From the NCBI GenBank assembly GCA_000165345.1, contig CM000436.1, positions 352,001 to 416,000 of the forward strand: DNA of 64,000 nucleotides. The letters are read 5' to 3'. Shown here piece after piece: positions 1 to 22,305 of the stretch. The position numbers and the translations under genes were made by a program. Every line of letters begins with the position of its first letter. Position 1 is the stretch's first letter. The notes beneath the pieces were generated by a model that was given only the letters and a program-made list of their open reading frames with translations, was not told the DNA's origin and searched no databases.

Positions 1-193
1 ATAAATATTTACAACAGGTCTAAGTAAACTTCACAGGCTTCAAACACTTTAAAACTTGCAAATTTTCCTGCTGTTCTTTTTTTTTTTGGAAACCTAAAAA
101 TTACCTTTCCCCCTTAATTTAATTATTTCTTTTCTCCTTACCCTATTACCGTTATTGCTCCTTTATATAAGATTTTTTTTTGAGGGGTAAAAC

Positions 194-224
194 TTTGGCG
201 CCATACGTGGCGCTTCTTGGCGCC
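194..224. promoter_or_regulatory. Cluster of three E2F-like GGCGCC sites upstream of centrin
   Basis: TTTGGCGCCATACGTGGCGCTTCTTGGCGCC, about 300 bp upstream of ATG 525. TTTGGCGCC(AAA) is the classic over-represented Cryptosporidium upstream motif. Confidence 0.5.
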
Positions 225-524
225 TAAAGTTGAAATTATTATTTTGTGAGAGCATGTAAAGGAGATATAATGTGGGGAAATAGGTTGTAATTAAAATTGG
301 AATACAAGGAAAGGAAGAATTAAATAAATTGAGACTAAATAGGCGGAAGATAGATAATAATATATATTAAATTTGGTGAATTTAGTGGAAAATTTACGGC
401 CTATTTGAGTTTTAAAGTCTGTTAAAAAACGACGGATTATAGCATATATTGAAAGAAAGGGAATTAATTTAAATAAAATAGAGAGAGATAGTTTTCAATA
501 TCGTTTTAAGAGTAATTTTGAACA

Positions 525-1022
525 ATGAAGAGAAGAACATCACCAACTAGAAAGAGAGGAAATGAGTGGCCAGGTTTGACTGATGATGAAATTGAAGAAA
601 TAAGAAAAACCTTCAATTTATTTGATACTGATGGTTCTGGAACTATTGATCCAAAAGAAATGAAGGCAGCTATGCAAAGTTTGGGATTTGAAAGTCAGAA
701 TCCAACAATGTATCAATTGATCGCAGATTTGGATAGAGAAGGTTCTTCAGCCATAGATTTTGAAGAATTTTTGGATGCAATAGCATCAAAGCTTGGTGAT
801 AAGGATAGTAGAGAAGGGATTCAGAAGATATTTGCAATGTTTGATGATGATAAAACGGGAAGTATTACATTGAAGAATTTGAAAAGAGTAGCGCACGAGT
901 TAGGAGAGACAATGACTGACGATGAACTAAGAGAGATGATTGAGAGAGCAGATAGTAATGGAGATGGTGAAATTAGCTTTGAAGATTTCTATAGTATCAT
1001 GACTAAAAAGACTTTTGTATAA
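525..1022 (+). CDS. Centrin (caltractin), EF-hand calcium-binding protein
   Basis: 165-aa ORF starting at ATG 525. It has four EF-hand loops ([36 protein letters not shown]) and a basic N-terminal tail typical of centrins. Three GGCGCC (E2F-like) sites lie 300-330 bp upstream. Confidence 0.85.
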
Positions 1023-1092
1023 ATTAAAACTTGAAAATAGTAATATTAGTATTGAAATTTTTGTTCAACTCTGTTTGAATTTATTTCATAAT

Positions 1093-2679
1093 TTATTTTT
1101 TTGAATTACCAGATTCTTGGTCATTTAAATATTTGTTGAGCATCTTAGGAATTTCTTCTTGTATTGAAATACTTGTATCCCATAGAAATGAAAATAGGTG
1201 TATTATTATTGAACATATAGAAATCCCAAAAAGGCTATATATAAGAACTTGATTAGGTATTAGTTTGTAATTAAGCTTTATATTTGATGCTAAGAGGAAT
1301 ATATAATAAAGATCGGATTTAAAAAGCCAAGAATTTGATAAATTTGTAATATATATAATATTAGATATTGGAATTAAGACTATACCAATAATAAAAATCA
1401 TAGAATTCATTGGAGTTTGTGATTTAACTAAAACATGTATTGGTAAACAATAGCATATTTTTTTAGCCAATAGATTCCAAGTATAACATATACATGATCC
1501 AATATATATTGGTAAAATCATTGAGAATATTATAAAAATCATATTAATTAATTGATTACCACTATAATTTGGAGGATTCTTGACAACAATATGAATGATT
1601 AATGTTGCATATATAGATATAGTTAGTAATAATGTAAAGAACATTTGTACTAATTTAATAATAATAAAGGTGATATTTTGTCCTTTAGTCCTGAATCTCT
1701 CCTCCAAATTCTCAAAATATGAGCTTAATGCAAATACCTCACTTTTATATTTATATATTTTTTGTTTAAGAGCTCTTGTTTCCTGCCAAGACTTTAAATA
1801 TTTGCTTGTGTAGAATTCTGATTCAAGTCCTTTGGAGCTTTGATCAAACTTTCTTTTCAGATTCTCTCCTTTATTTGATAGTGCTTTAGAGATTACATAG
1901 ATTTCTTTTTTCTTTTCTTGATATAAATGAATATCAATTAGTTTTGGTCTTCTAATGATTGAAATTAAGTAGTTAATTGGAATCAAAACGCTAGCAACTC
2001 CAATAAATAATACATTAAAAATATACCCAATAAATAATAATAATCCAGCTGTTGCTATGGAGAATGTTCCATTAAAAATTAAAGGATCACTTGCACAATT
2101 AGCTTCATTGATATAACCAAGTAATGTTAATCTTATGCATGTCTCTTTTGAAATGCTACCTAAGTGAATTTCTTTGAAAATTGCATAATTACCACCAATA
2201 AAGATCCAACAAAATAATGTAGATAAGAATGAAGCTAGATATGGAGTGTAAGATCTATTTAGTCCAATTTTTGTATCAAACTGGGTTTCATAATAAAATA
2301 TTGAAAAAGGAATAACCAAAGAAGTGAATAAAATATTCAAATACATCACTACCATAAACAAAGCTCTCATATTAACAGTTCTGAATTCTTGAGACCCAAT
2401 AATTGGATATTCATTAATAATATTCACTGGAACTAACATAAAGTTTATCCATATTAACTGTAATCCTAGAATTACAACTATTCTTGTTACTAAAGCTTGT
2501 GTAAAAAATCCTAAAAAAGTTTGGTGAGTCAAAGTGGGAAATAGCTGAAAAACCTTTAGCAAGTTTACTTACCTTTTGAATCTTCAGCATCCTCGAAAAT
2601 ATAAATTAACCTTAGATTAATAAATAAAGCGATGGAATTGTAGAATATTATAAAACAAATTAAAATGAAATCCATAAAT
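1093..2679 (-). CDS. LMBR1-domain-like multi-pass membrane protein (two exons; 5' end model uncertain)
   Basis: The ORF-track entry 1093..2562 starts at TTG (not ATG) directly after an in-frame TAA. About 9 predicted TM helices flank a central cytoplasmic coiled-coil loop (KEIYVISKAL...ETRALKQKIYKYK), and the size (about 490 aa) fits LMBR1/LMBRD. An upstream exon (about 2573..2679) encodes a TM1-like peptide FICFIIFYNSIALFINLRLIYIFEDAEDSK that resembles the human LMBR1 N-terminus. It is followed by a GTAAGT donor at 2572 and a CTTTTTTAG acceptor at 2511 (62-nt intron, phase 1); exon 2 is 1093..2510. The only ATG (2679) is out of frame by one base. Confidence 0.5.
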
Positions 2680-2817
2680 AATAATTCATAGCCTGTTTCA
2701 AATATTCTATGTTAACTTAAATGTTTTTTCCTTTGTTATTTATTAATAAATGTGAACTTATTTTTTTTTTTTTTTGCACTTCATTTAATTCATTCGTTTA
2801 AATTACGTCATTTTAAA

Positions 2818-2826
2818 TTTGGCGCC
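2818..2826. promoter_or_regulatory. E2F-like TTTGGCGCC site in divergent LMBR1-like/SMC5 promoter
   Basis: Exact TTTGGCGCC between the divergent starts at 2679 (-) and 3097 (+). CGTCA, ACCGGTA and CACGTAAT motifs are adjacent. Confidence 0.45.
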
Positions 2827-3096
2827 TAAATAAATTCATGAACACTGTACCGGTATTCATGCACAATTTTTTTTTTTTCAGTTAATATATTTATCCACAT
2901 AAATCACACGTAATTAAAAATAATTGCATTAATCATTTTGCTAAAGAAGGTAATTGAGAAACTTTTTGGAGTTATTTTTCCTCAATTCCATCTTTCCTTT
3001 ATGCAAATTCTAAGAAATATATTATAGTAACTGAATGAATGAGTTGATTGACAAATTTTGAGTTAATGATAATACTGATTAAAATTCATAAATTTA

Positions 3097-6000
3097 ATGA
3101 CTGTAATAAGTAAAAAAGGAAGATTAAAGAAAAATATTTGTGAAAGTGAACATGAAAATGATGATAAAGAAAAACAAGAAGTTAATAAAAGTAATCGAGA
3201 ATCTGGAAAAATCGAAAATGGTACATTAATTTCAATAGAACTAGAGAATTGGATGAATATAAAAGGGCCAACAAAGTATTGTTTTAATAATGGGGTTAAC
3301 ATCATTACAGGATTAAATGGGAGTGGTAAAAGTAGTGTGGCTTGTGGAATTGCAATTTCATTAGGATATGATACTCATATATTAGCTAGAGGTCATTACT
3401 TGTCATCATATATTCGTAATGGAAATACATCATGTAGATTATTAATAGCAATAAATAATGAAAAAGAGCATGAGAATCATTATATATCAGAAATTGAAAG
3501 AGTTATCACAATTGTAGAATCTAATAGAGCTAATAAGTCAAATTTGCAACCAGAAATTAGATCAAGTTGGAAATTAAATGGTAAGAAATGCTTAGAAAGG
3601 GATATAATAGCCTTAAGGAAAGGGTTAAACATTCAATTAGATAATATGGTTGCATTTCTAGCTCAACAAAGAGTTAGTCAGTTTGGTTCTCAAAGTCCTC
3701 AAGAAATATTTATCGATACTTTGAGAATCATTTCCAATGGAGAAAATTTAAAATCCAAAAATTCTCAAAATGAAAATATAATGATTGATACTACTATACT
3801 ATCTGAATATAAATTTAATGAAAATGATTTATTGAATGTATATTACCAATTTTTAAATATATTTAAGGACTCAAAAGATTGTAAATTAAGACTCAGAGAT
3901 CATGAAACAAGATTATCACAATTAAGTAATGAAATATCGAAATCCAAACAAAATGAAATTAAATATATACAATACTTGTTAAATAAAATGGGAATCTATT
4001 TGATCCATTTTTTTCAATCATTGAATGATATTTCAAATGATAAAGTTAGTTTATTAAATTTAGATGAGAGAAAAAAGAAAGTTATTAAAGTTATTACTGA
4101 AACAAGAAATGAACTCAAAAAATTGGAAAATGAGTCTTCAAAGATTTTTAAAGAACTTGAATTGGCTAATAAAAAGAAAGAAGACTTTTTAAGAAATTTA
4201 CAACATGATAAACTTGATACACAATTTAACTCATTAATGAATAATTTAGATCAAGTAATCAAAAAGTTACAAGAAAGTTACACAGATCCAAAGCTTTTAC
4301 TTGAAAGATATCGATTAAAAATGAAAGGAATACAAGATCAGATAATTGATATAGAAAATAAAATAAAGTATAGCATGGAACAATTTGAGAATGAATGGAA
4401 ACCAACATTGGTTAGATGCAAATTATATGAAGAAGATCTCCCTCATAAATTTGATAAAGTTACTGCTGAGAAGAAGAGAAAGCTATTAGGAGAAAGTCTG
4501 AGTGAAGTTTCTACCAAAAAAATAACATTACAAAAAAATATTAAGGAATTTGAGTTTATGCTCTCAAAACTAATTGAAAAGAAAAATTCTATTAATTCTA
4601 TTAATCCTGTAAACTTTAGAGAAAAGGTTCTGAGAGAAAAGTATCTTAAAAATATTAATCAAAAGGCCTTGTCAAGTTCCAAAAGAGAAAATATTCTTCA
4701 ATATTTTCAAAAGTTGAATGAGTATTCTGCTTTTGAAAATTATTTGCCAAAAAAAAAAGTAATAGGACCAATTGGAAGCTATATTTCTGTTAAGAGTATT
4801 AAATTTCAAACATTAGTTGAAGCATTTCTACAACAATTTCATTATTACTTTATCTCGGAAAGAGAGGACGTTAAATTGTTAACAGAAAGGTACCGTTTAA
4901 ATGTTTTAACATTGTCTAATTCAAAAACACCAATTTACCCAAAACTTGATGATGAAATGAAGAGTCTAGGAATTACAGGATTTCTACATGAACATTTGGA
5001 TTTTGAAGATGATACTATGAAAAACATACTATATCAAATTTCTGCTCAATTCTTCACATGCGTAATTATTGATAATCCAACATTATCAGTTGAAGAAATC
5101 CAAGAAGATCAAATTCTATATAAGATTTCAGATTGGTTTAAAAGAAAATACGATCAACCTGGAAACAAAATATCCAATAATATTCATCTGTTTATTACTC
5201 AACAAAATGTTGAAAATTATCTAGATTCAAAGAATGGAATTTTATTTAAACTTGTAACTTCTATATATAATCCAAATTCAAAAACTATATCGATGATCAA
5301 TCTTGGAGATAAAATGAATACAGTATTATTAAATAAAGATATAGTCAAAGAAGAAAACTTTGAAATTGAGCAAGTTAATCATCAAAAAAGTTCAGTTGAA
5401 ATTGAAATTGAACAGTTAGAATTGAAGATTAAAGAATCTTATAATACTTTTCAAGAGCTTAAGGAACAATACGATGGAGAAACTGCTCTACTTAATATGA
5501 TTACTGAGTGTATTAGTAATGTTCCTTTTTTATTTGAGAAAATATCTAGTTTGAAAAAAAGACTTGTTAATCTTGAAAAAGATATGAAAGAAAATACTCC
5601 AAATGAATCAGAAATCAAATTAAAGAATCAAAAACTCATTAAGTCTGCATTTATGGGTCAAAATCCATTGGATGATTTATCAGAGTCTATCGTTTTTAAA
5701 ACCAGTATATTTAATGAATTAAACAAAATTAATAAACTATTTCTAGAAATTTCTACTCAAGATTTTACTAAAAATAAGGAATTGAATGAAAAAGTTATTC
5801 AATTAAATACTAATTATTCATCATTTCAAAAAGAAATCATTCAAAAAAAAGAAGAAATAAGAAAATTTGAATTAGAAATGAATCAAGTTAATGAAGATTA
5901 TGATAAAATTATATCTAATTTGGATATTAAAAGAAAGGCTTCAATAGATTCTTATCTTCAATACTATTCAACTTATTGTCAATATTATAAGAGATTAAAG

Positions 6001-7379
6001 TATAATGATTTTAACAAAGGTTCTAATTCTAATCATAAATCAAATGAAAATATTTATGAATTTATTTATAATAAAATTGGTAAATGTGAAAATAATCAAT
6101 CTCAAGATCAAAATGATTGTGATAATGATAAAATCAATAGATCAAATTGGGATAATCATATTTCTGATGTTCCAGGTGTTAAATTCTTTTCATTTATAAT
6201 AAATGGAAATAAACCCTCATCAATTAATTGTGAGAAGATTCCTGATTATTGTTTAGAAATGATTAGTCAAGTATCGTCTGAGTTTGGACTTCTTAAATGT
6301 GAAAATTTACAATTTAAAGAAATAATGAATAATACATTAAAATATTCATCAAACTTGAGGAGTTACAATAATCAAATATTAAATCATGGAGAAGAAGAAA
6401 TGAAAGAGAATACTATTCTAGAAGATAATGAAGTTAAAGTAGGAAAAAGAGGTATTAAAAAGATTTCAAAAAATAATTCTTCTAATCATTTAACTCTATT
6501 TGATATTTTACTTGATAATGATGAATATAAAATAAGATATGAAAATCTATTTAATACAATAACTAGCTTAGAAGCCAAGACTCATAATACAAACTTAGAA
6601 AGAATGGCAGATTTAGAACAAGAATTTGAGATTTTAACCAAAGAAAGCCAAGATTTATCTAAAAGGATTATTATATATGAAGATTTTGTTTCTAAACATT
6701 ATAAGAAATGGATTGATCAATTAAAAATGATTGAAGATGTAGTTTCTCATTGTTTTGGAATTTTTATGAGATTTATTAATGATAAACATAATGGAAAGAT
6801 TATTATTCCTTTTATTAATAATTTTCTACTTTTTATGAATACTTCAATGGATACAGGTAATGAAGCTATATTTAATTATTTTGTTGATAATTTTGAAAAT
6901 GATTCAAAACTTAATATAATGGTTAGATTTAGTCCTGATGAAGATTTAAGATTATTTTCATCAAACTCAATTTCAGGAGGTGAACAATCTCTTTGTACTA
7001 TTCTTTTTATATTATCTTTACAGGTAAGTTTGAATGAATAAATATGGAAATATATTTATTTTTCTATCATTTATAGGGACTTTGTAATGGAAATTCATTC
7101 AAGTTATTTGATGAAATTAATCAAGGATTAGATAATTCACGAGAAATTAAACTAATGGAACTTTTAGATATTTTAACAAATAAAGAGAAAACCGAAAATT
7201 TATTAAAATTTAAAGAATATGAAAATAATTATGGAGAAATATATGAGAATATGAAAATTTCATCAAATTATAAAGATAATCAAATAATTATTATTACTCC
7301 ACATATCTTCCCAGGAGTAATTTTTGAGAACTTTTCAATACACTTTGTATTAAATGGTCCAGGATTTATAATAAATTAG
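3097..7379 (+). CDS. SMC5: Structural maintenance of chromosomes protein 5 (SMC5), two exons
   Basis: Exon 1 is 3097..7023. It carries an N-terminal Walker A (ITGLNGSGKSSVACGIAISLG), long coiled coils, and the ABC signature SGGEQS near its end. A GTAAGT donor sits at 7024 and a TTTATAG acceptor ends at 7076 (53-nt intron, phase 0). Exon 2 is 7077..7379 and encodes the Walker B/D-loop FKLFDEINQGLD and a ...ITPHIF...VLNGPG tail matching SMC5 (human PFRVVDEINQGMD ... FFITPK ... VYNGPH). Confidence 0.8.
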
Positions 7380-7392
7380 TTCAAGTGTATTT

Positions 7393-8787
7393 TTATTCGA
7401 GAAATTCTTGAAAAAATTTATACCAATTTGGATTATCTTGTATTCTTACAATAATGAATCCAATAGAGCCAAATCTCCAAATTAAATTTAAAGCAAAAGA
7501 AATTCTTCTAATTAAGCTGGCTAATTTAGGAGAATCAATATTACCATGGAAATTATTATGATTACCAATTCCAACACAAAAATAAATATCAACAAATTTT
7601 CCTTTAAATGATTTTTGTGAAAGTTCAAGTTCTTGTTGAGTAATTTTAAAATGATGAATATTTTTTGACAAGATTTCTTCCATATTAGCTTGGAATTTAT
7701 ATTTAATTATCATAATAATAGTAAATATGACTAAATTAATGGTTTCATTTCTATTAAAATTATGTAGATCAACAACAACTTGAGAATTATGATTTGATTT
7801 GGTTGAAAAGTAATCAATAAAATAATTATTTTGTGAGTTAAAAACAAGATTAAAGAGTCTTTTTTGAAGATTAAGTCTATCAATTTTAATAGAATTAATT
7901 TTATGTTTAAATTCTTGACTCTTTATTGCTTTATATTCACTTATATTAGAGTTATTTAAGATATTATTAAGTTCAGAATATTTTAATTTCAAAGACAAAT
8001 TCAAATCTTGAATTTGATTTTGTAGAATTTCTATTTCTTTCAAACTCTCTTTACTCCTAGAACTAAGTTTCATGTCTTTAATTTGTATTGAATTTGATTC
8101 ATTTCCAGGTCCTTCTGGTGGCCAATTTTTATTTTTTCCTTCTTTAACTTTGAATAATCTTGGAGAATTGAATATTTTAGTTAGAATACTACTAAATATA
8201 TTCATTTCATAATGAATTAACTCACTTTGAATCTCAAAAATATTCCATGGTTTTTTCCCCAGCTTAAGAATATCCCTTTGTATGCTATTATTATTATTAT
8301 TACTACTCTTTAAGGGATTTATCGGATTACTACTAGTTTGTTGATTTTGCGTGCACACAGACAAATATGACAATTTATTATTTTGTTTAAGAAAATCTTT
8401 CATATAAGTATCCAATTCATCATTTTGAATCTGATTAAAGTAGAAATTTAAGTTCAAATATCTATTAAAATCTATATTATTATTTAAATCCTGATATTGT
8501 TTGTCAAATTCACCGGAATTTTTAGAAGATTCTTGAAAATCGAACTGACAACAATCATTATAACCCTCTTTGATTGAAATTTCAGATAACTTCTCATATA
8601 ATTCGTTTATAATATTATTCATTTCATTTTCGTAACTATACTCTTTATCGCAGCTAGATAACTGTTTACATAGCTTAAGGTTTTCCTTAACTAAGTAATC
8701 AAAAATGTCTCCTATTATAACATCAGGGATATCACTAAAAATCTCAGACATATGCTTAACCACATTGTCACGAGTGTATGATTTCAT
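7393..8787 (-). CDS. CUE-domain plus Smr-domain protein (Cue2/N4BP2-like putative endonuclease)
   Basis: 464-aa ORF with ATG at 8787. The N-terminus has a CUE-like motif (MSEIFSDIPDVIIGDIFDYLVKENLKLCKQL). The C-terminus is Smr-like (VVVDLHNF...ETINLV ... IYFCVGIGNHNNFHGNIDSPKLASLIRRI). The middle is N/S-rich low-complexity. Confidence 0.45.
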   Translation of the reverse strand: MKSYTRDNVVKHMSEIFSDIPDVIIGDIFDYLVKENLKLCKQLSSCDKEYSYENEMNNIINELYEKLSEISIKEGYNDCCQFDFQESSKNSGEFDKQYQDLNNNIDFNRYLNLNFYFNQIQNDELDTYMKDFLKQNNKLSYLSVCTQNQQTSSNPINPLKSSNNNNNSIQRDILKLGKKPWNIFEIQSELIHYEMNIFSSILTKIFNSPRLFKVKEGKNKNWPPEGPGNESNSIQIKDMKLSSRSKESLKEIEILQNQIQDLNLSLKLKYSELNNILNNSNISEYKAIKSQEFKHKINSIKIDRLNLQKRLFNLVFNSQNNYFIDYFSTKSNHNSQVVVDLHNFNRNETINLVIFTIIMIIKYKFQANMEEILSKNIHHFKITQQELELSQKSFKGKFVDIYFCVGIGNHNNFHGNIDSPKLASLIRRISFALNLIWRFGSIGFIIVRIQDNPNWYKFFQEFLE

Positions 8788-13789: not shown

Positions 13790-22210
<8,421 letters not shown>

Positions 22211-22305
22211 CTTCAACTAATTTGCAAACTTCTTCCTCCTTTTTCCTTTTCCTTATCCCATATAATCCTCTTACCTAAATTTTCACTGCTTGACTTTGCC
22301 AAATG

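Follow-up and report, generated by a model that had tools for sequence, protein, structure and literature searches.

Human LMBD1 (LMBRD1), the lysosomal cobalamin transport escort protein (PDB 24vc, 24vd and 24ve), is the only relative of solved structure that we found for the Cryptosporidium protein described here. In Toxoplasma, TgLMBD3 (TGME49_222200) has been reported as a plasma-membrane protein of the apical annuli that belongs to LMBD orthogroup III and crosses the membrane with nine helices arranged 5+4 (PMC10857790). This 5+4 layout, in which a long cytosolic helical loop parts the two sets of helices, is that of the LMBD domain itself, and orthogroup III is reportedly retained by all apicomplexans and lost in animals (PMC10857790).

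The window analyzed is a stretch of 64,000 nucleotides of Cryptosporidium parvum chromosome 8 (assembly GCA_000165345.1, contig CM000436.1, positions 352,001 to 416,000 of the forward strand). It is AT-rich, with about 26% G+C, and positions 1093..2675 of its minus strand almost certainly hold a two-exon LMBR1-family gene with a 62-nt phase-1 intron and a 506-aa product. The product belongs to the LMBR1-domain (LMBD) family, of which it is a divergent representative, and has nine transmembrane helices, again arranged 5+4. Human LMBD1 is matched over residues 12-450, and the LMBR1 domain and a PF..FYYE motif after TM3 are common to both proteins, but in the aligned region human LMBD1 is without the YYxHPDDK-type acidic loop after TM1, and those sequences in the profile alignment that come from outside Cryptosporidium are 14-25% identical to the window protein. 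We would regard human LMBD1 as a relative by homology rather than as an established orthologue. TgLMBD3 resembles the window protein in being a 9-TM, 5+4 LMBD protein, a likeness that is a lead only, orthogroup III being one of four LMBD orthogroups. With human LMBR1 the common element is the Pfam family, PF04791, by name, and two distant relatives carry the automated name "LMBR1 domain-containing protein 1" rather than LMBR1.

Structure of the gene and its reading frame

A mechanical search for open reading frames presents this gene as a 489-aa ORF at 1093..2562 of the minus strand that begins at a TTG (2562-2560), and the same 489-aa ORF is given by automatic calls. The first-pass annotation, made from the letters of the window, took this TTG for a pseudo-start and proposed a hidden 5' exon, joined in phase 1 across a 62-nt intron, and each of these proposals is borne out. 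The TTG (2560..2562, minus strand) lies inside the intron, and an in-frame TAA (2571-2569), within GTAAGTAA, stands two codons before it. The exon-2 frame is open for 17 codons into the intron until this TAA in the donor, and a prokaryote-style ORF finder therefore calls a TTG start.

Direct translation from the minus-strand ATG at 2675-2673 reads MDFILICFIIFYNSIALFINLRLIYIFEDAEDSK in one frame into a GTAAGT donor. The coding part of exon 1 (2573..2675, minus strand) is 103 nt long, comprising 34 codons and the first base of Gly35, and its product holds TM1 (about residues 3-27) and an acidic loop, FEDAEDSK. The G of the glycine codon is at 2573, followed by GTAAGT at 2572-2567, with which the phase-1 GT-AG intron of 62 nt begins (2511..2572, minus strand; GTAAGTAAAC...ACTTTTTTAG); the intron extends through the CTTTTTTAG acceptor up to 2511. 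If the frame from ATG 2675 is left unspliced it runs for 36 codons (MDFILICFIIFYNSIALFINLRLIYIFEDAEDSKGK and then a stop), reading MDFILICFIIFYNSIALFINLRLIYIFEDAEDSK-GK-stop, and the read-through is ended by a TAA at 2567-2565, in the donor. When 2573 is joined to 2510 in phase 1, the computed splice gives a 1521-nt coding sequence of 506 aa in which the upstream peptide, ...ICFIIFYNSIALFINLRLIYIFEDAEDSK, is connected with GFFTQALV.... Exon 2 (1093..2510, minus strand) encodes residues 35-506, which comprise TM2 to TM9 and a long helical loop, and has its stop codon at 1095-1093. An internal Met59 codon (MLVPVNII...; 2437..2439, minus strand) is the start in older 448-aa models from C. hominis and C. 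canis.

On the model that we propose, transcription would run leftward out of the region common to this gene and the divergent SMC gene, and a single U2-type GT-AG phase-1 intron of 62 nt would be spliced from the pre-mRNA, placing the 103-nt first coding exon onto the long second exon to give the 506-aa protein. Exon 1 would supply Met1, the first transmembrane helix and the acidic loop, and translation from ATG 2675 would then produce a nine-helix LMBD membrane protein, with no frameshift, indel or recoding needed. We infer the removal of the intron from the mRNA from general statements in the annotation papers: the introns of the 2022 CpIA annotation are stated to be 100% RNA-seq-supported, and the same work corrected the N-terminus of Dnmt2 and those of another 523 genes (PMC8744675), while an RNA-seq reannotation of 2015 added 451 introns (PMC4637869). 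The biochemical role of the 506-aa protein is likewise one that we infer. In the parts of the annotation papers' supplements that we consulted, the intron of the LMBR1-family gene is not listed.

Family membership and predicted structure

The Pfam LMBR1 model gave no match to either the spliced or the Met59 protein, and none of 12 Cryptosporidium orthologues matched it, even at E <= 10. With Pfam silent on the Cryptosporidium proteins, family membership rests on profile-to-profile homology. An orthologue profile searched against 1.84 billion representative proteins found 335 relatives at E <= 0.001, many of which align from their own residue 1-8. Twenty relatives were scanned with Pfam, and 19 carry PF04791, which begins at residue 6-11 and scores 68-146 bits (cut-off 31.9), the remaining one being the C. 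serpentis orthologue. The missing direct PF04791 match is a detection limit and not a structural feature of the family.

Comparison by hhalign with genuine LMBR1-domain proteins gave a probability of 100% and an E value of 4.7e-50 over query residues 1-471 (448 columns), with exon 1 aligned to the family TM1 and FEDAEDSK to the HPDDK loop ("YYxHPDDK"). A profile headed by the window protein matched human LMBD1 (E 3.2e-31); when the PDB sequences were searched with a Cryptosporidium-only profile, a chance match was all that came back (E 2.1). The first-pass annotation called the gene LMBR1-like and likened its upstream peptide to the human LMBR1 N-terminus; the family assignment holds by way of profile comparison with LMBR1-domain proteins. 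A search with the spliced protein returned Cryptosporidium proteins alone, the best match being 98% identical and 506 aa long, and two further word-indexed protein searches gave Cryptosporidium proteins or unnamed transcriptome ORFs only. The nearest relatives outside Cryptosporidium are protists (the apicomplexan Siedleckia, Platyproteum, ciliates) and a chytrid fungus.

An AF2 model built from 57 sequences reached a pLDDT of 85.2 and a pTM of 0.85; AlphaFold run from the 12 orthologues only gave a pLDDT of 48.9 and was unusable. The model from 57 sequences has helices at residues 3-27, 37-68, 82-109, 123-146 and 184-220, a helical hairpin at 228-308 between TM5 and TM6, and then helices at 314-343, 354-385, 402-428 and 456-480. 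The helix at 3-27, which is encoded by exon 1, has a block-mean pLDDT of 85-96. Hydropathy peaks agree with this layout, as does the published 5+4 description of the domain (PMC10857790), and they clearly support eight of the nine helices. Foldseek found nothing in the PDB at E <= 0.001, and comparing the fold with those of solved structures was uninformative, with no match over the whole fold and none to LMBD1 from the structure libraries. A TTG start would lose TM1, and a start at Met59 would lose TM1 and most of TM2. Exon 1 contributes the first of the transmembrane helices and so takes part in setting the membrane topology; any tagging or knock-out of this gene therefore needs the true N-terminus.

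Conservation of the intron and alternative readings

The splice signals in the window are a GTAAGT at 2572-2567 and TTTTTTAG ending at 2511. GTAAGT occurs at 29 sites in the window, where 20.6 are expected, and five of 100 shuffles reach 29; with no enrichment beyond chance, we rejected the motif alone as evidence for an intron. The evidence for the intron is conservation across species, which at the level of sequence is decisive, and not the motif. Besides C. parvum, we compared loci from nine lineages in total: C. hominis, chipmunk genotype I, C. ubiquitum, C. canis, a Logan assembly, C. felis, C. ryanae, C. xiaoi and C. muris. Nine species have a 103-nt exon 1 and a 51-91 nt intron bounded by GTAAGT or GTATGT and AG, all in the same phase. 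The remaining comparison, with C. muris CMU_025220 (502 aa), has one solution only that reproduces the deposited protein, namely a 121-nt intron after nt 103. Alignment of the orthologous locus had been suggested as a check in the first-pass annotation, and it places a phase-1 intron after nt 103 in all ten Cryptosporidium species, each with GTAAGT or GTATGT as the donor and an AG acceptor. As the intron is kept in C. muris, it was present before the intestinal Cryptosporidium clade and the gastric one diverged. Its length is 51, 59, 60, 62, 65, 66, 74, 91 or 121 nt depending on the species, and all three remainders modulo 3 are represented. The AG has a T-rich tract ahead of it, and in several species a candidate branch-site sequence, similar to CTCAC/CTAAC, lies 10-25 nt upstream.

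The pattern of substitution differs between exon 1 and the intron. Differences from C. parvum in exon 1 at codon positions 1, 2 and 3 number 0, 0 and 9 in chipmunk genotype I, 2, 1 and 16 in C. canis, and 5, 1 and 17 in C. felis. These mainly third-position substitutions show a constraint of the coding type. Identity to C. parvum is 0.82 in exon 1 vs 0.54 in the intron interior for C. canis, and 0.73 vs 0.39 for C. muris; leaving out the near-identical C. hominis, the ranges are 0.73-0.91 for exon 1 and 0.39-0.68 for the intron interior. The spliced 506-aa product is gapless against its orthologues at the junction and colinear with the LMBR1 family. A spliced junction was sought in metagenome contigs, with no match, and an Rfam scan of positions 1..8000 found nothing.

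Several other readings of this 5' end have to be weighed. In the first-pass annotation the ATG was placed at 2679, offset by one base from the frame of the exon-1 peptide and with a stop after 20 codons, and it was suggested that the removal of a single T would repair the N-terminus, the cause being a homopolymer indel of the assembly in the T runs, a bona fide +1 frameshift or the use of another start. What speaks for this is solely the T runs at 2652-2670, and these are indeed present (2670-2668, 2665-2662, 2659-2657 and 2655-2652), but they do not disrupt the frame. The ATG reads directly at 2675-2673, it shares the frame of the exon-1 peptide in one continuous run to the donor at 2573, the unspliced frame has 36 codons before its TAA rather than 20, and no base needs removing; the "repaired" MDFILIICF... 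has one I more than the true N-terminus, MDFILICF.... Positions 693..3075 of the window, which include the whole gene, are exactly matched in two C. parvum chromosome-8 records (CP029787 and CP141125), the C. hominis record has no differences in exon 1, the exon is 103 nt in ten species, every one of which starts MD(F/L)IL, and the deposited proteins match the product exactly. We give next to no credence to an indel, a frameshift or an alternative start here, and the claimed frameshift, which the sequence itself refutes, is evidently a counting slip, one base having been lost within the T runs.

A gene with no intron that starts at the internal Met59 (ATG 2439; 448 aa), the similarity upstream being non-coding, is the form used in the public C. 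hominis TU502/UKH1 and C. canis records, but throughout the genus residues 1-58 show protein-level conservation with a third-position bias in their substitutions, and they align to TM1 and TM2 of LMBR1-family members for which complete transcript ORFs supply the N-termini. A nine-helix bundle that is modelled with confidence would also lose TM1 and most of TM2 if translation began at Met59, and we see only a slim chance that this start is correct. The 62 nt might instead be retained and translated, as in the annotated coding sequence of chipmunk genotype I, where the 60-nt equivalent is without a stop and a 526-aa read-through model has been deposited. The C. parvum read-through, however, stops two codons past the donor, there are four stops in the exon-1 frame, and in eight of the ten species the intron has a length that is not a multiple of 3 or contains stops. 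The use of another acceptor has a precedent in the C. felis record, which splices 3 nt upstream; in C. parvum, the only other AG that follows a T run upstream ends at 2545. An acceptor at 2545 was rejected, as the intron would be 28 nt and the frame would be broken, 103+34 nt being phase 2 where exon 2 needs phase 1. Retention or another acceptor has hardly any probability in our judgment, and a Met59 start and intron retention are both very unlikely. The two-exon gene with its start at ATG 2675 is the reading that we follow below.

Public records and surrounding sequence

The two-exon model is a re-discovery of a deposited gene model, in which the intron and exon 1 were already known. By exact-sequence look-up, the 506-aa product is residue for residue that of C. 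parvum cpbgf_8001280 / CPATCC_0001340, and the accessions QOY39880.1, WKS79378.1 and WRK33876.1 are identical to the spliced product. The cpbgf_8001280 / CPATCC_0001340 gene has the same implied 62-nt intron and the same neighbors, with no difference from the window gene, and the gene span in the public C. parvum chromosome-8 records is 1583 nt, that is, 1521 + 62. Models of 506 aa have also been deposited for C. hominis, C. tyzzeri and C. meleagridis, and the correct two-exon model is already present in current records for C. parvum, C. hominis, C. tyzzeri, C. meleagridis and C. ubiquitum. In every species the gene has a centrin-like EF-hand protein of 165 aa as its neighbor on one side and an SMC_N protein on the other.

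Several public records of the LMBR1-family gene nonetheless remain wrong, and where a Cryptosporidium gene has a small 5' exon an ORF track of the prokaryote style is misleading. The older intronless models XP_627036.1, C. hominis XP_667812.1 (448 aa) and that of C. canis (448 aa) have the exon-2 sequence in common with the window gene but are without exon 1, and so miss TM1 or TM1-TM2. The C. parvum record of 2004, XP_627036.1 (491 aa, "partial"), starts VNLLKVF..., right after the TAA at 2571-2569. The C. canis model starts at Met59 despite an intact upstream exon 1 and intron, and older C. hominis TU502/UKH1 records have the same start and length. In the C. felis model the acceptor taken is the upstream one of an AAG/CAG tandem, giving SKA-GFF at the junction. 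The C. andersoni record is of 489 aa vs 502 aa for C. muris. The 526-aa protein of chipmunk genotype I (L003 2501-4081, SCFC02000041.1) translates the stop-free 60-nt intron; the resulting insert of 20 residues, GKFLTENFSTFSHLSLPNFI, is in no orthologue, and the read-through model looks like a misannotation.

The older locus number of this gene probably does not run in parallel with the current one. In the supplementary table of Isaza et al. 2015, the cgd8_1280 row gives a C. parvum/C. hominis identity of 1.0 and a dN of 0 (PMC4637869). We considered cgd8_1280 as the window gene and rejected it, since these values fit the neighboring centrin instead. Of the 506 residues of the LMBR1-family protein, 11 differ between C. 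parvum and C. hominis (0.978), a value that agrees with the cgd8_1290 row of the same supplement (PMC4637869). As the cgd8_1280 row fits the centrin and the cgd8_1290 row fits the LMBR1-family gene, cpbgf_8001280 is probably not the old cgd8_1280; the window gene is probably the old cgd8_1290. No papers came up in full-text literature searches for either cgd8_1280 or cgd8_1290, and in the annotation-repair papers (PMC4637869, PMC8744675) we found no statement on the LMBR1-family gene itself.

Upstream of the gene, an out-of-frame ATG at 2689 opens a 9-codon ORF (2660..2689, minus strand; MNYYLWISF and a stop) that overlaps the main start codon. An upstream ATG lies 14 nt before the main ATG (13 nt in C. 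ryanae and C. xiaoi) in nine of ten species, C. felis being the one in which it is absent. The upstream ORF has nine codons in C. parvum and its close relatives and seven in C. muris, each overlapping the start codon; the leader around it is otherwise poorly conserved. It is doubtful that this putative conserved overlapping uORF throttles translation of the LMBD protein, and the ATG might just as well have arisen by chance in a leader rich in A and T, or be located ahead of the point where transcription begins.

The intergenic region between the LMBR1-family gene and the divergent SMC gene contains a GGCGCC palindrome at 2821..2826, and GGCGCC is found 95-160 nt upstream of the LMBR1-family ATG in seven of nine species. 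We take this palindrome to resemble the E2F-like box of Cryptosporidium promoters. GGCGCC palindromes are present in both intergenic regions flanking the gene pair, with three GGCGCC/GCGCC-type copies near 195-230. The SMC_N ORF itself (3097..7041, plus strand; 1314 aa) ends just past a GTAAGT at 7024, and removal of a 53-nt intron (7024..7076, plus strand) lengthens it to 1409 aa, the product length in CP029787. SMC_N records give 1409, 1394 or 1314 aa, so the public models of this neighbor also disagree. Farther along the window, a local G+C peak of 0.36 and a strong AT skew at 14-16 kb both trace back to CAA/CAG codons in long poly-glutamine tracts, which belong to the C-terminal third of a 2808-aa ORF (13790-22216, minus strand).
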